Below are positions 2,793 to 62,200 of a stretch of DNA of 64,000 nt, in pieces. Within the stretch, counting starts at the first letter, position 1, and the number at the start of each line of letters is the position of its first letter. A model generated the notes under the pieces. It made no database searches. It had not been told where the DNA came from and saw only the letters and a program-made list of their open reading frames with translations. Made by a program: the position numbers and the translations under genes. The DNA comes from a virus (taxonomy: Duplodnaviria; Caudoviricetes): positions 1 through 64,000 of IMG/VR virus record IMGVR_UViG_2522572099_000001. The stretch is one strand, 5' to 3'.

Positions 2793-2974
2793 CGGTCGTC
2801 CCTGCAATCCGCGCAATGGTGCAGCCAGTCCCGACCGCGCTTGAAGATGCGCCAGCCTTCATCCTTGGCGTGCTGGATCATGACGTCGAAGTCATCCTTG
2901 TCGAATACGCGGCCGGCGCTGTCGCCGCACTCGTCGCAGCAGAGCTCGATCTTGTCGTCGAGGCGCTCGATCAT
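2789..2974 (-). CDS. Small Zn-ribbon protein
   Basis: CDEC and HCADC motifs; coupled to neighbours. Confidence 0.65.
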   Translation of the reverse strand: MIERLDDKIELCCDECGDSAGRVFDKDDFDVMIQHAKDEGWRIFKRGRDWLHHCADCRDDR

Positions 2975-3624
2975 GCGGGCACCGTGACAATGAAGGTCTC
3001 GACTGGCGGCCCGGGCTTGTCATTGTCGAAGACGGCAACCGCCAGCTTTCCGGAGTAGAACGCTCCGGTGTCGATGTTTATCCGGCCGGCCAGGACGATA
3101 GGTCCGTCATCGAAAGGCGTGTGGCCGTGGACGACATAGCCGAGGCGACATGTGTAGTCCCTCAGCTTTCCGGCTCGGGACCAAAGCATCGTCTTCTCAG
3201 TCTGCTCATCGAACGGGACCGTCTCATCGATGCCGGCGTGCACAAAAACGCGATGCCCATCGACGAAGCAGAGTTTCAATGCAGCCATCCATGCGAGGTG
3301 GCTCTCCGGCGCTTCGCACTCAGGATAGGACGCCAGTGTATGACTTCCGCCGTTCCCGATCCACCAGCCCATCTCGTATTCGCCACGAAGGGCGCCAACC
3401 ATCATGTCTTCGTGGTTGCCTTTGAGGCAGACCCACTCCCAACCGGGCTTAGTCGGCCCCGCCATGAGCCGTTCGATGATCTCCCTGCTTTGCGGACCAC
3501 GGTCCACATAGTCGCCTGTGAAAACGACGCGACCGCCTGACGGGCTGGCCTCGATGCGTTGCAGCGCGGCATCGAGCAGATCGTACCGGCCATGCAGATC
3601 GCCGATGGCGTATGTGCGCCTCAT
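2971..3624 (-). CDS. Metallophosphoesterase (NinI/PphA-like Ser/Thr phosphatase)
   Basis: GDLHG, GDYVDRG, GNHE, HGHT and IDTG motifs. Confidence 0.93.
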   Translation of the reverse strand: MRRTYAIGDLHGRYDLLDAALQRIEASPSGGRVVFTGDYVDRGPQSREIIERLMAGPTKPGWEWVCLKGNHEDMMVGALRGEYEMGWWIGNGGSHTLASYPECEAPESHLAWMAALKLCFVDGHRVFVHAGIDETVPFDEQTEKTMLWSRAGKLRDYTCRLGYVVHGHTPFDDGPIVLAGRINIDTGAFYSGKLAVAVFDNDKPGPPVETFIVTVPA

Positions 3625-4345: not shown

Positions 4346-4783
4346 CTACTGGAAAGCGCGCCGGGCGCCGTTGGTGGCGCCCGGCGCCTTGGCGTGATGG
4401 CCGAGACCTGAGGACTTGGCCAGAGCCGAGCGCTTCTGAGAATAATTCGGCGCCACCATCGGATAGTCGGGAGCAAGGCCCCATTTCGCGCGATACTGAT
4501 CCGCCGTCATGCCTAGTGCCGAGAGGTGCCGCTTCAACGACTTGAACTTCTTCCCGTCGTCGAGGCAGATGATGTGATCTGGGAAGATCGACTTCTTCGG
4601 ATTGACGGCCGGCACCAGCTCCACGGCTGGCTTGACGACGACGAGGGTGTCGAGCCTTCGCACCGACGCGTTGATGCTGGCGATCAGGTAGGGCAGCTCT
4701 CCGGCCGGCACCGGGTTGTGCCCGACATAGGCCGCCACGATGCTGGCGGTCAGTTCGATGAAGCGCATGTTCCGATCTTCCAT
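4346..4783 (-). CDS. mucR: Ros/MucR family transcriptional regulator
   Basis: IELTASIVAAYV, ICLDDGKKFKSLKRHL and YRAKWGLAPDYPMVAPNYS motifs. Confidence 0.95.
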   Translation of the reverse strand: MEDRNMRFIELTASIVAAYVGHNPVPAGELPYLIASINASVRRLDTLVVVKPAVELVPAVNPKKSIFPDHIICLDDGKKFKSLKRHLSALGMTADQYRAKWGLAPDYPMVAPNYSQKRSALAKSSGLGHHAKAPGATNGARRAFQ

Positions 4784-4812
4784 ATTTTCTCTCCGTGGTA
4801 AGGGTTTGGAAT

Positions 4813-5466: not shown

Positions 5467-5510
5467 CGCTCGTCTCCCTGGTTCTGCTCGTGTGCAGTCG
5501 ACAAAACATC

Positions 5511-23356: not shown

Positions 23357-24115
23357 TCAATGCCGGCTGATCAGCGAAGCGATCTTCGTCAGCCCTTTCG
23401 GTGTGACGCGCACCTGCTCGATCATCTTCTCGGAGCCGTCCGCGCGCGGAACCGCCGTCACCTTGTGCTCGAGGTAGCCGGCGATCACCTTGGACTCGTA
23501 GCCGAGATAGTTCGATGAGCCGCGCCGCTTGAAGATCCAGCCATTGCGCAGCAGTCTGGCGAAGAACTCCTTCGGCTGCATCTGGAGGGCTTTGGCAGCA
23601 TCGGTGATGCAGAGCGAGCCGTCGGCCGCGGCAATGCGCTGAAGCGCGTCATGCGACGGGCGGAGTTGGGCGACTTCCTTCTGGAGCTCCAACGCCTTGT
23701 CGGCATACGAGGCCAGTAAGCCGCGAAGCGTGGCCGGGTCGTTTAGGTCCACGGGCGGAGCGGCTTTCTTGAGAGCCGCATCCATTTGATCGAAGGCATC
23801 CATATAGGCCAGCTTGAAGTCGAGCGCCTTCGGACCGGTGAACCCCATCCCCAAAAGCGTGAAGCCTTGCCGCGTCATATCGAAGTAGCGGTGCTGCTGC
23901 TGGCGGGTCTCCGGAAGGGTGTAGACCCCCTGCGCAAAATGGAGCAGGGCCAGGCTGGGCTTCTGTTCGATGAGATTGTCGATCGCGCGGATCACGTCGC
24001 GGTGGTTCTTTTCGAAGTAAGCCGCCACGTCGCGGCTCGTCGCGAAGACCTCGCCATTGCGCGCGAACACGACCGGCGTCGCTTCATTGACGTAACTGAC
24101 CGCCGCTTGTGTCAT
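23357..24115 (-). CDS. Rha-N / KilAC(ANT)-C phage antirepressor
   Basis: TSRDVAAYFEKNH..GFTLLGMGFTG..K..Y; ITDAAKAL..VTPKGL. Confidence 0.9.
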   Translation of the reverse strand: MTQAAVSYVNEATPVVFARNGEVFATSRDVAAYFEKNHRDVIRAIDNLIEQKPSLALLHFAQGVYTLPETRQQQHRYFDMTRQGFTLLGMGFTGPKALDFKLAYMDAFDQMDAALKKAAPPVDLNDPATLRGLLASYADKALELQKEVAQLRPSHDALQRIAAADGSLCITDAAKALQMQPKEFFARLLRNGWIFKRRGSSNYLGYESKVIAGYLEHKVTAVPRADGSEKMIEQVRVTPKGLTKIASLISRH

Positions 24116-24624
24116 GGCGCATGCACCTCGACAAAATGGATATTGCCCGGAAGCGCGCAGGTGAGCCGGGGTGCGACGGCAATTCCCATCTCCGCGCCGT
24201 AGACGGCCATGTAGCGCTGAAGCTGCTTCGTCGCCCTATCGTCGAAGGCGACTAGCTTGACCTCGACCGGGCACTTCCGCATCTTCCATTCAACGAATCC
24301 ATCAGGGATGTTCCTGCGGTTGCATTCCACGGTCGTCTGCCGCGCGCCAGGAAGGTAGCGCACCAAATTTTTGTAGAACTCGCCTCGGATGTCGGATTCC
24401 TGGACCTTGGCATCATTAATGCTTTTCATGATGAGCAAAGCGACACCCTCTCTCAGGTGTGACAGGAGAAAGGTTGCATCGATGCCCTTCAACAATTCCC
24501 TGGCCTTTGTTGGCTCGTACATGGCCATGCGAGCTATCTCATCGAGTTGAAGCGCCTCACGGCAGACTCGCGCCGCGTGAGCCGCCAATTGGAGATCGCT
24601 AAGGTGCGCCTGTTCCTCTCGCAT
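24112..24624 (-). CDS. PD-(D/E)xK nuclease-fold protein
   Basis: IPDG..VEVK..QLQRY..GIAVAP motifs. Confidence 0.7.
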   Translation of the reverse strand: MREEQAHLSDLQLAAHAARVCREALQLDEIARMAMYEPTKARELLKGIDATFLLSHLREGVALLIMKSINDAKVQESDIRGEFYKNLVRYLPGARQTTVECNRRNIPDGFVEWKMRKCPVEVKLVAFDDRATKQLQRYMAVYGAEMGIAVAPRLTCALPGNIHFVEVHAP

Positions 24625-24670
24625 CGTCGTTGCTCCGGTCGACTCGTTGGTAACCAGGAAAGTGTATGAT

Positions 24671-24687
24671 GTAACCAATTTGGTTGC
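24671..24687 (-). promoter_or_regulatory. Operator within a TTGCAA-N17-TACACT promoter of the nuclease-antirepressor operon
   Basis: GTAACCAATTTGGTTGC plus a half-site near 24650. Confidence 0.8.
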
Positions 24688-24700
24688 AAAATATTTGGCA

Positions 24701-24736
24701 TGAAAACGCCCGCCGCGAGGACCAGTCGCGGCGGGC
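24701..24736 (-). terminator. Intrinsic terminator of the parB operon
   Basis: 11-bp stem GCCCGCCGCGA/TCGCGGCGGGC followed by GTTTTCA on the minus strand. Confidence 0.7.
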
Positions 24737-24737
24737 A

Positions 24738-24765
24738 CCTCGGCCCCACGGAGAAAAGGCCGAGG
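24738..24765 (-). ncRNA. Candidate 3'-UTR sRNA hairpin with an anti-SAS loop (UUUUCUCCGUGG)
   Basis: 8-bp stem; 12-nt loop complementary to CCACGGAGA. Confidence 0.5.
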
Positions 24766-24772
24766 CTGTTCG

Positions 24773-25642
24773 CTACATCAGCATCGTGCGGGCATGTGCC
24801 TGGCGCAGTTGGGATTCCATCGTGCGGATGGTCCGCGATGCTGCCGCCAGCGTGTCGGCCCATTTGTCGGCCCGGGTTGGGTCGACGGATTTCAGCGCCA
24901 CGCACTCCCCGTCCTTGAAACCGGCCGCGATCGCCGTGACGATCCGCTCGACGGTGCGCTCCATCCTGCTCATGGCGGCGATGTCGTCCTTCGACGGTTC
25001 GGGTCGATCGTCGAACATGCCACCCTGCTCGATGCGGTCGCGCACGGCTTGCGCCGCCGCCTTGACGCCCGACCAGTCTTTCAGCTTGCCGCTGGTGAAC
25101 AGCTTCACAATTGCCATCTGCTCATGCTTCGGCAGGTCGACCAGATAGTTCGCGTGCCCGAGTGGGAACTGGTTGGCGTCGACCAGGCTCTGGATGGTCT
25201 CGTCCAGATTGAGCAGCGCCGTGCGGTCGGCGATCCGCCGCGGCTGAACGCCGAGATCCTTCGCCAGTTTCTCCACGGTCCAGCCCATGTCGAGCATCGC
25301 CTTGAACGCGCGCGCCTCCTCGACAGCACGCAGATCGGCGCGCTGCAGGTTCTCAATGATCGCTTTCAGCGCCATCTCGTCGTCGCTCATGTCCTCGACC
25401 TCGCAGAGGATGGTCGGCGTCTTGCCGAGCGCGCCGTCGTCCGCAAGCAGGCAATGGGCCCGCCAGCGGCGCTCGCCGCCGACGATGATGAAATGCTCGC
25501 CGGCTGGCCTGACCGTGATGGCCTGCATGAGGCCGCGCTCGCGGATGGAATCGGCCAACTCGCGCAGCGCCTTGACCTCAAAGAGTTTCCTTGGCTGCCC
25601 CGGATTCGGGATGACCTGGGTGAGGGGGATGCGCTTTTTCAT
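24773..25642 (-). CDS. ParB/RepB/Spo0J family protein (no ParA seen)
   Basis: PNPGQPRK, GERRWRA and ENLQRADL motifs; HTH. Confidence 0.92.
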   Translation of the reverse strand: MKKRIPLTQVIPNPGQPRKLFEVKALRELADSIRERGLMQAITVRPAGEHFIIVGGERRWRAHCLLADDGALGKTPTILCEVEDMSDDEMALKAIIENLQRADLRAVEEARAFKAMLDMGWTVEKLAKDLGVQPRRIADRTALLNLDETIQSLVDANQFPLGHANYLVDLPKHEQMAIVKLFTSGKLKDWSGVKAAAQAVRDRIEQGGMFDDRPEPSKDDIAAMSRMERTVERIVTAIAAGFKDGECVALKSVDPTRADKWADTLAAASRTIRTMESQLRQAHARTMLM

Positions 25643-27342
25643 GACCGGCCCTCCGCTTTGGCAATGGCAGCGTCAATCGTTGCCTCGATGTCGGCTATGA
25701 TATGCATTTCCGCGTTGTCGCTGTCGGCGTCATGATAACTGCCAATCTTGCCGGCAACTGTGATGAGTGCCGACAGCAGATCGGGCCGCGCCTGTTCGCG
25801 CGGGATTGCCGCGCGCAGTCCGGCGAGGATGTCTCCAATGCCTTCCTGCGTCTCGTCGTCTTCAAAGCCGCTGATGAAGGACTCTGCCTGAGTCAGCGCG
25901 TCGACGGTATCGCTGGCGTGGTCTGCGACCGGTGAATCGGCGGCCACCATTTCGTCGGTATGCCAGCCGTCGTTGGTCGCGGCCATTGCTTCGCCAAGAT
26001 CACCTCCGTAGACGTCCTTGAAATCGTCTAACGTGGTGGCGAGCGTCCCGGCGTTCTCGAATGCGTAATCCCACAAGTGGGAGTCGCGCTCCTCCTCGCT
26101 CGCGAATAGGTGAAGCTCGCAAGCCCGGTCATTGTCGATTGCCAGCGCAAAGCAGCTGCTGACGATGACGGGCGCTGGCGGCTTCGGATCATATTCGCTC
26201 GGCAGGCTGTGCCCCGCCCAATCGCCGAGCTCCTCGCCGGTGTCGTCGTCGGAGGCGTCGATCACGGCCAGATCCTGGCCGCTGTCGGTGGTCGTTTCCT
26301 TGATGTCGATGTGCTCGCCGATATAGTCGGCGGTGAGGAGCTTCATGCCCTCCTCTACCGTCTCGGCCTTGACCACGACGTTCCCGTAGCAGCGGAGGTT
26401 TACGCCCATGTGGAAGTTGATGTTACGCATTGGCCTGGCCCTCCGCCTTCGCGATGGCCGCATGAAGCTTTGCCGCCAGCACCGCATAGGGCAGATGGGC
26501 GTTTTGAGGCGTGATGCTGTCGAGTGGCCAGCAACCGGCGATCTCTTTCAGAACAGCCAGCATGTCGGCGGTGACCGTCTCGACGTAAGCGACGGTGTCG
26601 CGCTGGTCCTGGTGACCGCGTTTGTCGGTCGTGCCGGCGAGGGAGCCGATCAGCCGAAGCTGGTCGACCAAGGCAGGCCCATGGGAAGGGCCGGTGACTG
26701 GCGGAAGAGGCCGTTGGCGGCTGTGCACCAACGCGACCAGGCGATCGAAATTCGCGTCCGGCATGCGGATCGCTTCGCCGACCGGGTCTGCCATGAAGGC
26801 TTCGACCTGGTCGCGATGTGAGGCGAGGGCCGATCCCCAATTGGCGTCGATCACGCCGGCGGTTAAGAGGTCGAGCTTATCGAGGCCAAGCAGGATACGA
26901 AGGGCATTATGGAAGCGGGCGGCGTTCATGCCAGTTCCCTTTCGATCTTGTCGGATAGAGGCTTGAGCACCTCGTTCCAGATCGCGTTGCAGATTTCGTT
27001 GTCGCTGTAGTCGGCCACGACGTCCCAGCCATCGTTGCCGTAGATCAGCTGGAACCAGCCCAACTTGTCGCCGGCAGCGTTGCGGATGACGATGCCGTCT
27101 TCGTCGGTCGACGCCAACGCGGCCATGATCTCGGCCTTGTCGGTCGACTTCCTCACCGGCCAGTCTTCCCCGTCGCTAACGGAGATCACATAGCCGCGCT
27201 TCAAGCAGCCATCCACCAGGGCGGTGCACATGCGGCGCTCGGCCTTCATGCGTCGAGCTAGCGCCGGGCTGTAGTTGCGGTGATCGTAGTCGGAGGCGTT
27301 CGCGATGGCTTGATCGAAGCCGGTCTTGATGGTCGTGGTCAT
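25639..27342 (-). CDS. Three hypothetical ORFs (25639-26430, 26423-26929, 26926-27342)
   Basis: Coupled; the first gene is preceded by TACCACGGAGA; ..AAIAKAEG phage motif. Confidence 0.65.
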
Positions 27343-27361
27343 GGTCTTCTCCGTGGTAGAG

Positions 27362-27529
27362 GAAATCGATGCCGCTCCGGCGGCTATGCTATGCCTGGCC
27401 CGTGCTCCCGAGCAGCTTTCGGCCGCCGGATGAATGAGCGAGAAGTCACCAATCGCCAGCCCGCATTCGTCGGGTTTGCCTGGCAAAGGCTGCAGCGGTG
27501 AAAGGAAGCGGCTTTCGGGCATCGATTTC
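27362..27529 (-). ncRNA. Structured 5' leader RNA (~170 nt)
   Basis: 12-bp closing stem GAAATCGATGCC/GGCATCGATTTC; inner 9-bp stem TCCGGCGGC/GCCGCCGGA. Confidence 0.55.
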
Positions 27530-27551
27530 GGTTTTTCCTAAGTACATCAAT

Positions 27552-27580
27552 AACTTAGTACGTAACCGAAATGGTTACAA
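27552..27580 (-). promoter_or_regulatory. Promoter TTGTAA-N17-TAAGTT with a perfect operator (27562-27578)
   Basis: Near-identical to the cassettes at 32244 and 35123. Confidence 0.85.
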
Positions 27581-27626
27581 GTGGTGCCAGGAATAAAAAG
27601 CCGAATATTTTCCGCTGCTTATGTCG

Positions 27627-28223
27627 TCAGAGAACCGGCTGGAACCGGCCCTTGAGGACTTCGGCGGAGATCGAGCGCTTGTCGTCGCCGCGCTGGATCT
27701 GCGCCTGGTCCGGATTCTCCGGATCGAAGCCGATCACCTTCCAGAGATTGCCGTCGCCGTCTGGCGCCTCGGCGCCGATATAGAGGGTGACGTCCAAGGG
27801 CTCCGGCTTGGCCTGCTTGCGATATTGCGCAGGCAGCTTCGGATGCTGCCACGCACAACCCTGGTCTTCCAGGCCATATTCAAACACCTCGATGCCGAGC
27901 TGTTCCTTGAGCCACACCGAGATGTAGGCGCGGTGGCAATATTTGTTGTCCGTCGGCGCCTCGTAGCATAGCAGCGCCGCGTCCTTGCCCGCCGAGAGGT
28001 CTTCGATCTTGGCCACCACCTTGCGGGCATCGAGGCGGGCCAGTCCGTCGAAATAGAGCTGCTTGTAATCGCGGTCGCTGGCGGTGGAAAACCAAGGTCC
28101 TGGTGCGAGTTCCGCCATCTTACGGAACCCTGCCGGATATCCGCGAGGCGTGCCCCTGGAAACCCCGATTTTTTGGATCGTGGTGGGTAGGGGATGGAAC
28201 CAGCTCGAAGTGAAAATGCGCAT
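27627..28223 (-). CDS. DUF488 family protein
   Basis: IFTSSWF..GVSRGTP..LAPG..LLCYE..CHR..WL motifs. Confidence 0.8.
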   Translation of the reverse strand: MRIFTSSWFHPLPTTIQKIGVSRGTPRGYPAGFRKMAELAPGPWFSTASDRDYKQLYFDGLARLDARKVVAKIEDLSAGKDAALLCYEAPTDNKYCHRAYISVWLKEQLGIEVFEYGLEDQGCAWQHPKLPAQYRKQAKPEPLDVTLYIGAEAPDGDGNLWKVIGFDPENPDQAQIQRGDDKRSISAEVLKGRFQPVL

Positions 28224-28330
28224 CTTGTGTCTCTTTCCGTGGTAAGGGTTTGGACAGGTCAAATCATAACTTTTGAGGACTTCCGCGGCAACCAAAATGA
28301 ACCCATGTGTTGCCGTTTTGGTGCGTTGCT

Positions 28331-29561
28331 CTAGCCGTACATCTGCATTACGTATGGGTTCTCTCTTGCGCTTCCGGGCGCGATTCCGTGGTAGGTATCG
28401 AGAGGAAGGCCGGCCAGGGGCAACCCGGTCGGCCTTTGAAATCTGCGGCGCGGCAGGCTTTCGAACGTGCGCTGCTCGGGCCAGTTCATCCAGATCGAAA
28501 TCGCCTCGAAGCTGAGCCAGCGCGGCAGGCTCTTGAAGTCGCCGGTCAGCGAGCGGCCGCAGAGAAAGCCGTTGCCGGCGAACTCCGGCCCGTCGGGGAA
28601 GAACCGAAACGTCGTCTTCGCCGCCTCGCCGGTGATCCACACATCGAGATCATGCGTGAGCTCGACCCGCTCGGGGAAGGCGCAGCGCAACATGCCGCCG
28701 ATGAACTCGTCGCCGAATTTGTGCGGCGTGGCGAGGTCGAAGACGCGTCTGAGGCGGGAATCGATCATTATAAAACGCATGGCATAAGGTTCCTTTCGTG
28801 GATCCGGTTTTCGATGACGGGCGCCTTCTCGGCTTCCCAGATTTCCAACCACCAGGACGCCAGCTCGGCGTGGTAGCGATGGTCTTGCGGCCGGCGCCGC
28901 GGCATCGTCACTTCCCGCTGGATCCAGTCGAGCCTGGCCTTGACTGTGGGGAGGTAGAGCATCATCCGGAAGGCGTCCGCGAGACGCATGTCGAGGGCAT
29001 AGTTGCTGGTCGGACCGAGCGGGGAGATGTCGCAATGCCACGACGACCAAGTGTCCAGCGCGTCGTTGATGCCGGCGGTCATGACACCGCCTTCATGCCG
29101 GGATGGAACGGCTGCTCGAAAGCCATCTTCGCGAAGGCCGCGCGGATTTCCTCCGTCACGATCTCCACCGTTGGCTGGTCGCCCTTGCCGAGATATTCTT
29201 TTGCCAGCGCGTCCGCCGCGCCGACTGGACCCATGGGGCCAAGCACGGGATGATCCTTCATCTGGAAGTCGCCGCGATCCCAACTCTCGGTGACGCGACG
29301 GCGGCCAATGACAAGCGCCCTCTCCATGGTCATGTCGACGAAGATGCGCATCCCGACGGGGGGGACGAAATTGGGCACGAATGCATCCTCGTGCCAGTCA
29401 GCGTGGCGGAGGAGGTCCTTGCCGTTCCGCGACTTCACACCGAAGGGGGTAACGCCGTCTCGGCTGTTCCAAATCCATTCGATCTCGCCGGCCTCACTGG
29501 TGTACTTCATCAACGAGTAGGCTTCGGCGCTTCTGCGGGTAACTTGGCGTGTGGTGGGCAT
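28331..29561 (-). CDS. Three hypothetical ORFs (28331-28780, 28768-29082, 29079-29561)
   Basis: Coupled; the first gene has a SAS and an operator; IWNSRDGVTPF motif. Confidence 0.65.
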
Positions 29562-29589
29562 TTCGTCGGTTCTCCGTGGTATGGTTGAA

Positions 29590-31200: not shown

Positions 31201-32193
31201 TCGCCACCTCGGCACCGCGATTGTCCAAGGTTCCGCAGCGCGTCGTTTCCCTTGTCGGTCGCCATAAGATATTCGTGTCGAAGCCAATGGGCGAGGCCGA
31301 GCGCTACCAAGCGCAATGCCGGTCTGCTTTTCTGCACGGCCCTCACGCCGTCAGTTGCTTCGATCAACAGCCACCATTGGGCGCGGGTTAGGTCGCTGGT
31401 TTTCATCACTTTGGTCGTCTGCATTGGTCTGGTCTCCGTGGTACGGGTTGGCGGGCGACGGGAACGACCCGCCGCCCTATCGAAAGGGTTGGTTTCAGGC
31501 CGAAGCCCTTGGCGTCATCGCCCCTCCCTCGCTCGTTTCGGTGAAATCCTCATCGTTGCGGCGAGGCCGGGAGACGCGCTCCCGGCAGGACGGACAGCGG
31601 CAGTCTTCGCTGTCATCGAAGGGGAAGGGCGAGAGGCAGTCGTCGCAGTAGGGCATCGCCAGCCTCAATCCATGTTGCAGTGAACGAGCGCGGTCGCGTA
31701 GTCGACGCCGGTTTCCTCGGCGTAGACAGCGGCCTGATCGCCGGGGCGGTTGGCGGCGAACCGCGCCTCGGGCTCGAAAGCGTTGCACATCGTCAGCAGC
31801 AGCTCAGCGTCGTGCTTGTTCTGGATGCCATGGCAGAGCACGACGTCGCAGCCGCCGACCTGGTTGGTCTTGCGATAGATCGAGTAAGGCCAGCCGGCGT
31901 CGGATTCGTGCAGGTGCTCGCCGTTGTCGCCTTCCGAGCCGATGAAAAAGCCCGGCTCGAAGCTGCCTTCTGTACGCCAATTCAAGATTGCATTGTGGGA
32001 GGCCATTTTCCTACTCCGCGAGTTCGCGGGAGGCCCGCTGCTGATAAGCGATGATGCTTGCCTCGACCGGCTGCATTTTCCATTCCGCCATGAGTTTTAT
32101 GGCGAGCGAGTGCGGCGCCGAGCCACCACCACTCGGTGTGCAGGCCAGGAGCGAGGTGAGAAGAATTTGCTTCTCGTTGTTGCTGAGGTCCAT
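31197..32193 (-). CDS. Four small hypothetical ORFs (31197-31424, 31495-31656, 31665-32006, 32011-32193)
   Basis: SAS before 31424 and 32193; RBSs present. Confidence 0.6.
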
Positions 32194-32233
32194 GTTTGGT
32201 CTCCGTGGTAGCGAATTTCTTAGTAACCACAAC

Positions 32234-33846: not shown

Positions 33847-33975
33847 CGTTTCTCTCCGTGGTAGTGGATGGTGCCAATTCGGTTGCAAATCTTTCTTGAC
33901 AGAATGCCGGGGGGGGGGAGCAGAAAACATGCAGCCTGATTCTGCTGTGCCTTCCACCTCACCCCCCGAGTCTGA

Positions 33976-34698: not shown

Positions 34699-34728
34699 TT
34701 CAGGTCTCCGTGGTAGGGTTGGTTGCGC

Positions 34729-35073: not shown

Positions 35074-35112
35074 TTGTGTTTCTCCGTGGTAAGAAAGTTG
35101 TTTGATAACAAC

Positions 35113-45624: not shown

Positions 45625-45715
45625 GTCCGCGTGGCGGAAATGGAAGACGCGACGGGTTTAGAACGCCCGTTTGTAGCTTCGGCAAGCAGTGCAGGTTCGA
45701 TTCCTGTCGCGGGCC
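45625..45715 (+). tRNA. Atypical class II tRNA (Leu-TAG-like, 9-nt anticodon loop, no CCA)
   Basis: GTCCGCG/CGCGGGC acceptor; TGGCGGAAATGGAAGACGC D-arm; long variable arm; GCAGGTTCGATTCCTGT T-arm. Confidence 0.7.
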
Positions 45716-45810: not shown

Positions 45811-46173
45811 ATGGCGCGCTTGACCGATCTGAAACGCGAGGAACTCTGCCGGCAATATGTCGCCGGCGTTCCGACGGCGCAGATCGCCAAGGAGTTTGGC
45901 GTCTCGGAGAGCTATCCGAGCCAGATGGCGGCGAAGTTCAAGCTCAAGCGCCGCGTTGAGCACGAGCCGCGCGATCCGGAGGCCACCGTCGCCAAGCGCC
46001 GTGCGCTGGCCGACATGCTGGTCGACGACGTCCCCACGGCTGGCCGTCCCGCGCCGATGAACGCCAACTCGGCCATTGAAATCCGGCGTCTGGCCGCGAT
46101 GGGCAAGGGCCGCACTGCAATCGCGGCCTTGCTGCGCTGCCCGTATCGCGTGGTCGACGCCGCGCTCGCCTAA
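45811..46173 (+). CDS. Small HTH protein
   Basis: RBS AGGAGA; two HTH-like segments. Confidence 0.7.
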   Translation: MARLTDLKREELCRQYVAGVPTAQIAKEFGVSESYPSQMAAKFKLKRRVEHEPRDPEATVAKRRALADMLVDDVPTAGRPAPMNANSAIEIRRLAAMGKGRTAIAALLRCPYRVVDAALA

Positions 46174-59248: not shown

Positions 59249-62200
59249 ATGGACATTTCCGGTCTTGTCGGCAGTGTCGCGGTGGAAGTCCGTGCCGATT
59301 TGCGGCCTCTGGAAAAGGGCTTTGACGAAGGCAGGGGAAAGGCGACGCTGTTCGATCGCCAGGTCTCCGGCAGCTTCCGCAACATGGGCCAGGAGGCCAC
59401 CAACGCTGGCCGCGTCATCGAAGGCTCGTCCATGCGCGCCATGGCGTCGACCGATGCGCTTGGCCGCTCGATCACCACTGCCGGCTCGGCATATCGCGGC
59501 CTGATCGCCATTGCCGGTGCTGCCGGTCTTGCGCTCGGCACGGCCTTCGCCTTCGCGCAATTTGTCCGCAACACCGTCGATTCCGAGAAGGCGCAGACGC
59601 AGTTGGGCGCCGCACTTCGCTCGACCGGCAATGTCGCCGGACAGTCTGTCGAGGGGCTCAACGCGCACGCCGCGGCGTTGCAGAGGATCACGGCCTACGA
59701 AGACGACGCCGTCACCTCGTCGCAGGCGCTGCTGTTGACCTTCACCAAGATCCGCGGCGACACCTTCAACCAGGCGACCGATGCGATCCTCGACATGGCG
59801 ACCGCCATGAAGCAGGACCTCCAGGGCGCCACGATCATGGTCGGCAAGGCGCTCAACGATCCGGTCCTGGGCGTCACCGCGCTCGGCCGCGCCGGCGTCC
59901 AGTTCACGGCCTCGCAGAAAGAGGTCATCAAGACCATGGTCGAGACCGGCAACGTGGCCGGTGCGCAAAAGCTCATCCTCAAGGAACTGGAAAACCAGTT
60001 CGGCGGTTCGGCCAAGGCCGCGCGCGAGACGCTGGGCGGCGCGCTCGATGCGCTCGGCAACGCCTGGGGCAATCTGTTCGAACTCGGCAAGGGCTCGACC
60101 GATCCGTTCCGCATGTCGATCGAGGAACTCATCGTCACCATCAACAACCCGGCCTTCCAGCAGTTCGTGCAGCTGGTCGGCACGAAACTGTTCGAGGCGC
60201 TGACGGCTGCCGTCAACATCGCGACCATCCTTGCCAACCATCTCGACTCGCTCGGCACGGCGGTCGAACTGCTCATCGGCTACAAGCTCGCCGCCTGGGC
60301 CGTGGCCGGCGCCGAGGCGCTATATGGCCTGTCGGTGGCCACCGTTGCCGCCGAAGGGTCGATGGGGCTCCTGGCGATCGCATCGGGCACAGCTGGCGCG
60401 ATCGTCGGCGCCATCAGCTGGCCAGTGGTCGCAATCGCGGCGGTCGGTTTCGGCGTCTACAAGCTCTACCAGAGTTACAAGTCCGCCGCCGAGACGGCAG
60501 CGCTCTACGCCGAGCAGCAGAAGATCGTCAACGAGGCCATGGGCCAGTCGATCGATCCGACGGCCAAGGCGACCTCAGCGGCGCTGGCAAAGGCGCAGGC
60601 CGATTTCGCGGCCGCCGACGCGATGCTGCAGCGCGCTGAGGCCGAACTCGAATATCGCAAGGTTTTGCAGGAGAGCGTGCCATCGCTGCCTGGCGCGCCG
60701 GATCCGCTCGCCGGTGCCACGTCCCGGCTGGCCGAGGCGCGCAAGAATTTCGACAGCCTTGGCCGCACTTTGCAGGCGCTCAACATCCAGGGCGCCGCTG
60801 AAATGAAGGCGGCTGGCACCGCCGGCAGTGCCGCGATCTCGTCGGCGACCTCGCTGTTCAATCTTGCCAAGGCGGCTTTTGGCGATGTTGCTGATGGCAC
60901 GCCCAAGATCGGCCAGGCAGCCGGTGGCATGATCGGCGACGTCAAGGGTGCCGCGGTCGCGGCGCTGTCGGCGGCGGAAACGGCGCGGCGGGCGAACGAG
61001 GCCAACCTTGAAAGCCTGCTTGGCTACAAGGCCGAACTGCGCAGCACCACGACCGAGCTCGAGGCTTGGAAGCGGGCGATCAGCGGCGCCACCTCGTCCG
61101 GCTCGATCACCGATTTCTTCGGCGATGTCTCCGACATCAAGGGCGCGGATGCGGCGATCCGCTCGGCCGGCGGCACGATCGAAAAGCTGTTCGATGCGTT
61201 TCGCTCCGGCGACAAGTCGACGCGAGCCGTTGCCGACGGCATCGACGAGGTGCGCAAGACCCTGCTCCAGGGCGGCCTTGGCGTCGATGCGGTCAACCAT
61301 TTCATCGACGCTCTTGTGATGGCGGAGCAGCAGGTCGCCAATCTCGGCGCGCGCTCGAAGGACCTCGACGCCACCATCCAGGCAATGCGTGACAAGACCA
61401 TCCTGATTACCACGGTTTACCAGACGTCGGGCGGGCCGATCAGCGTCCAGCGGCCCTACAGCGGACCGGGCGGCCTTTCGACCAACCCGGTGGCAAAGAT
61501 CGGCGGCATGGACCCGTCTCCGTTTAGCGGAACCGGCTCGTCCAGCGGCAGCGCTATCCCCACCGCCAATCTCATCCATGTTGCCGATTATATCTCCGGC
61601 ACCCGCGCGGCTGGCGGTCCTGTCGATGCCGGGTCCAGCTATCTCGTCGGCGAAAAAGGCCCCGAGATCGTCACCATGTCTGGCGCCGGCAATGTCTCGA
61701 CGGCTTCGGCGACGTCGAACATCCTGACCGGCGGCGCCTCGGTTCTGAAATCGATCGAGGAAAACACGTTTCAGACGGTCGAGGAGGTCAAGCGCTCGGT
61801 CGGCTATCTCGAGACGATGGAGAAGGATGGCCAGACTGGTCTTTCGCTGCTGCGCGCCATCAAGTCGGTGATCGGTTCGTCGTCGATCAACACCGCGTCG
61901 AGCGGTGGCGGGTCATCTTCCGGCTTCTCCTCTGGCGGTGGTTCGTCCGGTAGCGGTTCGACCGCCTACAGTTCCAACGATCCGAAATCGCCTTACTACT
62001 TCCGCAACAATGCCGGTCGTGGTCCGAGCGGGCCGGTCTTTGACCCACTGGCCGACTATCTGCTCAATGGCAACAAGGCCATGCTCGGCGCGGTTGGGCA
62101 GCGCTTGGCCGGCTCGCCCAGCAACGTCGATATCGGCTACGATCTCATCGGTGGCGGCGGCAGCCAGACATGGCGACAGGATTTTCTTGCGCAACTCGCC

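Follow-up and report, generated by a model that had tools for sequence, protein, structure and literature searches.

A hairpin behind a phage parB gene mirrors a start-site tag of early genes: a candidate antisense RNA

Directly behind the parB gene of a temperate, Mesorhizobium-type phage lies a hairpin whose loop is complementary to a sequence repeated just ahead of several early genes, which raises the question of whether the 3' end of one early transcript could control the translation of the others. The stretch analysed here, called the window, covers positions 1 to 64,000 of IMG/VR virus record IMGVR_UViG_2522572099_000001, which is 72,282 bp long and has direct terminal repeats and 63% G+C; its phage is referred to as G0. 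A first-pass annotation of this DNA had read the hairpin as the seed of a small RNA governing a translational regulon. We tentatively favour a reading of this kind, with a confidence that stays just short of even: judging from sequence and predicted structure, an RNA from the 3' end of the parB operon would pair with the repeated sequence, hereafter the tag, and block ribosome binding. The inverted copy of the tag is termed the mirror.

The core of the tag, CCACGGAGA, occurs nine times in the window, eight times on the minus strand and once on the plus strand, at 24746-24754, where it forms the loop of the hairpin. Shuffled sequences contained 0.59 copies on average and 3 at most, and none of 100 reached nine. 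All eight minus-strand copies read TACCACGGAGA, and each lies 5-9 nt ahead of an ATG, in agreement with the claim that the tag covers the Shine-Dalgarno sequence of eight leftward genes. In the whole record, the 11-mer is found 0 times in forward and 8 times in reverse orientation. Counts on both strands of the window likewise upheld the claim that the loop, exactly complementary to the core, is its only inverted copy. A single inverted 9-mer per window is not rare, about 0.3 being expected per strand. The copy is unusual by its place, in a loop within 3' non-coding RNA; from base composition, we estimate that about 0.05 copies would be expected in the sense intergenic sequence, which totals 7,733 nt.

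The tag is private to the phage. The 12-mer CTACCACGGAGA is present in 5, 4 and 1 copies in Mesorhizobium sp. WSM3862, Mesorhizobium sp. WSM3860 and Chelatococcus asaccharovorans, whose genomes (6.2-7.3 Mb) harbour related prophages, and all 10 copies are inside prophage. Ten further contigs returned by the tag search, with no more than two copies apiece, do not qualify as tag-bearing phages. In Mesorhizobium sp. WSM3862, which hosts a relative, the 16S ribosomal RNA ends in ...GGAUCACCUCCUUUCU and pairs with the GGAG of the tag only, so that the UACCAC part, which is invariant, must be conserved for another reason. Six of the eight tags are preceded by promoter-like hexamers and by a palindromic operator of the form TTGTAACC-N4-GGTTACAA, exact or varied, five of these operators belonging to a set of ten sites described below. 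Early leftward units between 35,100 and 24,700 thus carry the tag at their first gene. Several of the tagged genes encode small proteins without a family.

When the minus strand was re-read, the letters and coordinates of the hairpin were as the annotation had given them (Table 1). The 8-bp stem and 12-nt loop it described are present as sequence, whereas in the minimum-energy fold the first stem reaches 11 pairs, including two U-G and one G-U, and an 8-nt loop, UUCUCCGU, remains, with an unpaired probability of at least 0.97 per base. RNAfold gave -46.1 kcal/mol for 24697-24772 (z -4.7), and none of 200 shuffles was as good. A single U separates this seed hairpin from a GC-rich, terminator-like hairpin with an 11-bp stem and a run of four U. 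Thus, the seed hairpin sits between the parB stop, 7 nt away, and a putative terminator, as is the case for small RNAs derived from 3' untranslated regions, and the position right after parB and before the terminator is also used in the related records G1, G2, G11 and G13. The gene map, made with our own gene caller, shows that parB closes a four-gene operon whose head carries the tag at 27348, and that the genes around the element are leftward. A plus-strand gene start at the inverted tag copy was considered and rejected: no ATG, GTG or TTG lies within about 12 nt, and the nearest plus-strand ATG (24794), 40 nt off, opens an open reading frame (ORF) antisense to parB.

Read from the plus strand, the hairpin would expose ACGGAG in its loop, and the annotation had offered as an alternative a CsrB-like decoy, in which a plus-strand RNA with a GGA-containing loop titrates an RNA-binding protein. 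This alternative found no footing. No match to the CsrA family was detected in the phage or in any of the three host genomes of relatives, the hairpin is single and not part of an array, the U run lies on the minus strand, no plus-strand promoter-like site was seen upstream, and the adjacent genes run leftward. A decoy of this type is scarcely credible here.

Counterparts of the element were then sought in the full sequences of twelve related records, gathered via ParB or via the tag; four of these (G4, G8, G12 and G14-type) are incomplete fragments. Tag-like start sites number 3 to 20 per related record, and in 10 of the 13 related records a complement of the tag lies on the gene strand just upstream of a terminator-like hairpin. 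In G10, CGCUGC-UUUCUCCGUGG-GCAGCG keeps 11 letters of the loop of G0, with every stem letter changed yet paired. In G1 and G2, the closest relatives by ParB identity to G0 (76% and 73%), in which the tag is unchanged, a different first hairpin right after the parB stop is followed by CUGUGGUAGGGA or UUGUGGUAGGGA, abutting a different terminator. G11 carries UUGGUAGGGA and G7, which has no ParB, carries CGUGGUAGGGU, each before a G0-type terminator, and CGGUAGGGA stands after a parB fragment in G13. The mirrors of these last five records are (C/U)UGUGGUAGGGA-type or shorter sequences that abut the terminator and have as their complement the other half of the tag, CCCUACCAC. Mirrors of 14-16 nt occur in G6, G8 and G9: UUUUCUGUGGUAGGGA and GCUCCUGUGGUAGGGA precede terminators in G8 and G9, following a small Cys-rich gene that the two have in common at the protein level, and UCUCCUGUGGUAGGGG is found in G6, where the other strand has no start codon within 30 nt. 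A recent duplication as the origin of the G6 mirror was rejected, given that its flanks and those of the matching tag are unrelated. The terminator-like hairpin of G0 itself recurs, at 28 of 29 nt, in G10, G7 and G11 with longer runs of 6 U; the U tail measures 4 U in G0 and 5-7 U in G1, G7, G11 and G13.

Ranked among sense intergenic matches to the tag, the element comes first in G0, G1, G2, G6, G7, G8, G9 and G13 and second in G11; ranked among gene-strand matches genome-wide, it comes first in G1, G2, G7 and G10. A match of -17 kcal/mol or better, at most 70 nt upstream of a sense intergenic terminator, was found in 9 of 13 records. None of 300 shuffled 14-mers reached nine records, the maximum being seven, and these shuffles control for relatedness only insofar as a random target could also match a conserved block. 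G10 is not counted among the nine because the gene caller laid an ORF over its element. This final test was limited to sense intergenic terminators; a tightened terminator predictor had kept doubtful hairpins inside genes. In a wider window test, opposite-strand top matches appeared in G1, G2, G7, G11 and G4 and were not counted as elements. In G1 and G7, and at the matching site of G0, these matches are the complementary strand of an orphan sense tag next to a two-way hairpin.

As far as these records tell, the half of the tag that the mirror covers tracks the half that is conserved. The mirror of G0 covers CCACGGAGA, and there the three bases that precede TACCAC lack conservation (0.5-0.8); in G1, G2, G7 and G11, where the mirror covers CCCUACCAC, the CCC prefix is invariant. 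This pattern bears on the possibility that the tag is a DNA site, bound by a phage or host protein, with the inverted copy as an extra site at the end of the early region. Such a site would be in keeping with conservation that reaches beyond the Shine-Dalgarno core, with the tags near operator-promoters, and with the element adjoining parB, the gene of a DNA-binding protein, in five records. However, a protein site should keep one core, and a single protein would not tolerate inverted copies that retain different, barely overlapping halves, which suggests that the two halves fit RNA pairing better. The motif is moreover asymmetric, strand-specific and tied to the ATG (5-9 nt) and not to the promoter, the leader ranging from about 10 to about 170 nt, and G6 and G7 have tags and mirrors but no ParB homologue. 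We consider a DNA site very improbable.

The pairing of mirror and tags was predicted by a windowed duplex search over 111 start regions of G0, corrected for the cost of opening both partners. In accordance with the targets that the annotation had named, the eight tagged start regions rank 1, 2, 3, 5, 6, 7, 9 and 10 of 111, with energies of -8.7 to -12.0 kcal/mol; these good ranks follow from the complementarity of the tags to the loop and show only that neither partner is buried. Among the relatives, targets rank well in G1, G6 and G8; their ranks are fair in G10 and G9 and poor in G7 and G11.

A mirror at the 3' terminus might nevertheless serve in cis only, pairing with the 5' tag of its own operon mRNA and closing a loop that represses the first cistron or protects the transcript ends, without any regulon. 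The unit that ends in the mirror also starts with a tag in G0, G1, G7, G8 and G9. In addition, L071, an unrelated 56-kb viral contig, has before a start codon a hairpin with the tag as one arm and a perfect 13-nt mirror as the other; this hairpin, with the tag CCCUACCACGGAG, spans 905-965 (-32.5 kcal/mol, z -5.6) and stands directly before the ATG of a 7-codon ORF. L071 thus appears to show cis pairing of this very sequence in use, and makes an action confined to cis plausible. On the other hand, the other seven tags of G0 are identical to the operon's own and the pairing prediction sets none apart, opening costs more at the operon's own tag (5.1 kcal/mol) than at any of the other seven, and in G10 an opposite-strand gene separates the element from the operon. 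Taken together, a role in cis alone seems quite unlikely.

The preferred reading, in which the mirror acts in trans, can be put as follows. An open-loop hairpin mirroring the private tag (UACCACGGAGA), followed by a terminator hairpin, would form a module at the 3' end of the parB operon, active either as the operon mRNA's own tail or after processing to an RNA of about 70 nt. Its loop would pair with the tags of at least eight lead genes of early units, including that of its own operon. Since the pairing would lie across or just upstream of the GGAG Shine-Dalgarno core, within the 30S footprint, it is proposed to hinder 30S binding. If the effect is indeed repression, the mirror RNA would accumulate as early transcription proceeds, and the tagged genes would be turned down together by a growing feedback. 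Host Hfq, which is present in all three host genomes of relatives, may assist.

Several observations weigh against this reading. A look for the sequence among sequencing runs yielded no RNA run, and two runs of DNA or of unknown type. The annotation had placed an intrinsic terminator after the hairpin, and the GC-rich 11-bp stem followed by UUUU is there; however, the U run of G0 is short, and because it has only 4 U a simple terminator scan made no call at this hairpin. The annotated small-RNA regulon was borne out as to the private tag, the open loop, the recurrence in 10 of 13 records and the target ranks, and its conservation as to the G10 loop on a different stem and the tag-complementary mirrors elsewhere, but not as to the exact loop, which is absent from the closest relatives: G1 and G2 have 0 inverted 9-mers and bear a shifted complement, half of it predicted to be hidden in a stem. 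In all shifted mirrors (G1, G2, G7, G11 and G13), UGUGG is predicted to be paired into the base of the first hairpin, and opening them would cost about 7-8 kcal/mol, with UAGGGA left as a possible toehold; the seed is predicted to be open in G0 and G10. The loop form occurs in these two records only, and the stem covariation therefore rests on one comparison. The G10 element is flanked by opposite-strand genes, one of them DUF982 (Pfam 3e-12), with no same-strand gene directly before it, and may depend on a promoter of its own or on transcription reading through from the operon. G10 also fits the relation between mirrored and conserved halves poorly, having a conserved CC prefix and yet the loop form. 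The tagged targets rank 2, 5, 7, 10 and 23 of 113 in G7 and 5, 6, 8, 13, 17, 19 and 35 of 99 in G11. The search turned up no element in G3, a record 91% complete, nor in the fragments G4 and G12. The -17 kcal/mol threshold was chosen after the value of G0 had been seen, and, the records being related, the 10 elements are not independent events; all of them may descend from a single ancestral full-length inverted copy. Lastly, sense junctions of a hairpin and then a tag exist at real gene starts (G0 31433, G1 20330), so that an inverted junction could arise by rearrangement.

These sense junctions also invite the explanation that an inverted "hairpin plus tag" module is a functionless leftover, carried along with a useful terminator, and that the hairpins only end transcription. 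An orphan sense tag beside a two-way hairpin, at about 28383, and the failure of G1 and G2 to keep the exact loop are consistent with this, and lineages could retain different halves of an ancestral 14-16-nt copy, as in G6, G8 and G9. Nevertheless, G0 and G10 share 11 loop letters on stems that differ throughout and still pair. The block GGUAGGGA is invariant in G1, G2, G11, G13, G8 and G9 (GGUAGGGU in G7), while the nearby hairpins and terminators vary. The retained parts are contiguous runs of at least 9 (7 in G13) with no scattered matches, and the recurrence exceeds that of shuffled 14-mers. We therefore regard a mere leftover as unlikely.

The coordinates of the locus and of the tags are collected in Table 1. 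BLAST of 24000-28000 against named phages gave one match only, of 102 nt, to a Citromicrobium phage, and the phage thus has no annotated close relative. Beyond the terminator-like hairpin, the next unit consists of an unknown gene and an antirepressor gene (Pfam Rha and ANT).

Table 1. Positions of the parB locus, the seed hairpin and the tags in the window.
Feature	Position	Strand	Basis or remark
parB (289 aa)	24773..25642	-	Pfam ParB_N 9.5e-22, HTH_ParB 2.4e-15
parB stop TAG	24775-24773	-	sequence
Spacer CGAACAG (7 nt) between parB stop and seed hairpin	24772-24766	-	sequence
Seed hairpin, 5' arm CCUCGGCC	24758..24765	-	sequence, fold
Loop UUUUCUCCGUGG	24746..24757	-	exact complement of the tag core CCACGGAGA in its last 9 nt
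Seed hairpin, 3' arm GGCCGAGG	24738..24745	-	sequence, fold
Terminator-like hairpin GCCCGCCGCGA-CUGGUCC-UCGCGGCGGGC (24736-24708), then GUUUUC	24702..24736	-	sequence, fold
Operator palindrome TTGCAACCAAATTGGTTACA and promoter-like hexamers of next unit, just past U run	24669..24689	-	1 of 10 such sites
Tag TACCACGGAGA, first gene of parB operon, 5 nt before ATG	27348..27358	-	motif count
Tag before Ros/MucR-type regulator gene	4790..4800	-	Pfam ROS_MUCR 4.2e-44
Tag before 160-aa gene, downstream of operator-promoter	29571..29581	-	motif count
Tag before 74-aa gene, directly after hairpin	31433..31443	-	motif count
Tag before 60-aa gene, downstream of operator-promoter	32200..32210	-	motif count
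Tag before 84-aa gene	33853..33863	-	motif count
Tag before DUF2786/DUF7168 gene, downstream of operator-promoter	34705..34715	-	motif count, Pfam
Tag before 101-aa gene, downstream of operator-promoter	35081..35091	-	motif count
One-mismatch tag TACCACGGAAA before DUF488 gene	28234..28244	-	motif count, Pfam

Some further features of these sequences were observed. The phage-borne Ros/MucR-type zinc-finger regulator (window 4346-4783) is tagged though distant from the main early array. The palindrome TTGTAACC-N4-GGTTACAA has ten window copies at no more than 3 mismatches, against 0.08 expected, at 5509, 16645, 24669, 27560, 29598, 32242, 34727, 35121, 45187 and 56467. Most of these sites overlap promoter-like hexamers ahead of tagged genes; they are probably the operator set of the phage repressor and resemble repressor systems with many sites. 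Upstream of the DUF488 gene lies a conserved non-coding stretch (window ~28330-28440, G1 ~24210-24310, G7 ~46050-46150) with a hairpin, U-rich sequence on both strands and then an orphan sense tag-like ACCUACCACGGAAU (~28383 in the window), which is away from start codons and within a predicted multi-stem structure.

Used as a probe against viral contigs, the terminator core retrieved known relatives and, beyond these, only unrelated hairpins and coding matches; against metagenome contigs it retrieved three coding matches, all unrelated. Its apical 17 nt, CGCGACUGGUCCUCGCG, top hairpins with other lower stems in L164, L169, L170 and L173, which are unrelated phage contigs of differing G+C, and the number of such matches is near chance for the size of the collection. 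The Cys-rich protein directly preceding the mirror in G8 (2839-3057) and its counterpart in G9 measure 72 and 83 aa with a common C-terminal pattern, and their gene lies after a terminator. After parB in G4 (L012 10889-11060), about eight CUUCCC or CUUUCCC repeats surround a hairpin, and these could be RNA motifs of an anti-Shine-Dalgarno kind or a repeat array bound by ParB.

Among known regulators, the proposed RNA may be compared with the 3'-UTR-derived, Hfq-dependent small RNAs of bacteria and with the alphaproteobacterial AbcR and alpha-r14 family RNAs, which have anti-Shine-Dalgarno loops. These RNAs expose a seed in an open loop, share the 3' terminator of an mRNA and reach many host targets through generic CCUCC-like motifs. 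The phage element resembles them in a seed predicted to be open in G0 and G10, in a putative terminator at an mRNA 3' end and in its many candidate targets at ribosome-binding sites; it differs in that the seed extends into the private part of the tag and that the U tail of G0 is short. In phage T4, the RegA repressor and the RegB nuclease, both of them proteins, act on the start regions of early genes. The coordinated shut-down of many early genes through their start regions proposed here would be similar, except that the effector would be an RNA and recognition would be by base pairing.

Phages also have short RNAs that block translation by pairing of their loops at and around a ribosome-binding site, namely the c4 RNA of P1/P7 and the sar RNA of P22, as summarised in PMC12197685; there, c4 shares a transcript with its target, and c4 and sar each have one target, the antirepressor. 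Loop pairing at a ribosome-binding site is likewise proposed for the mirror, which in contrast matches a tag common to at least eight genes. In a literature search on phage-encoded small RNAs, including a 2025 review, the phage RNAs that came up had a single target each. An Rfam scan of the window at gathering thresholds returned no match to the c4 antisense RNA (RF01695); the sole match is a tRNA at 45625-45715 (37.9 bits).

The tag itself has its closest analogue in the start-associated sequences (SAS) of Cluster K mycobacteriophages. In sections of Pope et al. 2011 (PMC3203893), these are asymmetric 11-13-nt motifs with a Shine-Dalgarno core, found in one orientation at about 10-19 non-structural genes, a few nt before the start codons, conserved beyond the pairing with 16S and absent from the host. 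The same sections leave undecided whether SAS are bound by RNA or protein and record a single reverse-oriented copy in K1 phages, and passages of papers from 2024 and 2025 still call the role of SAS undefined. The tag is likewise asymmetric and near start codons, with eight of eight copies on the gene strand and one inverted, is conserved beyond the GGAG that can pair with 16S, and has host copies only within prophage. Its sequence is, however, unrelated to that of SAS, GGGATAGGAGCCC, as are the hosts (alphaproteobacterial here) and the phage lineage. The tag therefore fits the operational definition of SAS as an analogue, not a homologue.

The reverse SAS copy of phage Anaya proved to lie in the 10-nt loop of a hairpin, GCGCGG-CCUCCUAUCC-CCGCGC, within a 385-nt non-coding gap; it occupies the apical loop at L175 39846-39905 (record ~59845-59904). 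This loop is kept in Tiri, Angelica, Niklas and SgtBeansprout (K1-type), with compensatory changes in the lower stem, and the homologous gap of Ekdilam, Amgine, Shandong1 and Unicorn (K5/K6-type) contains no mirror within 3 mismatches. A literature search, supplementary files aside, found no paper proposing a mirror RNA for SAS. Private tags served by a single mirror RNA might be a general phage device, evolved independently in Mesorhizobium-type and Cluster K phages, an idea that we entertain with more doubt than confidence; the device may be an RNA master switch for an early gene set, or an RNA immunity factor against incoming relatives. If true, it would supply a mechanism for SAS, whose role has been open since 2011, would be a compact means by which a virus singles out a set of genes for translational control separately from host mRNAs, and would offer a natural template for orthogonal translational control. 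The mirror RNA is a concrete hypothesis that mutation of the pairing between RNA and tag can test, and related prophages in cultured Mesorhizobium strains and the Cluster K phages, which are laboratory workhorses, both lend themselves to such work at the bench.

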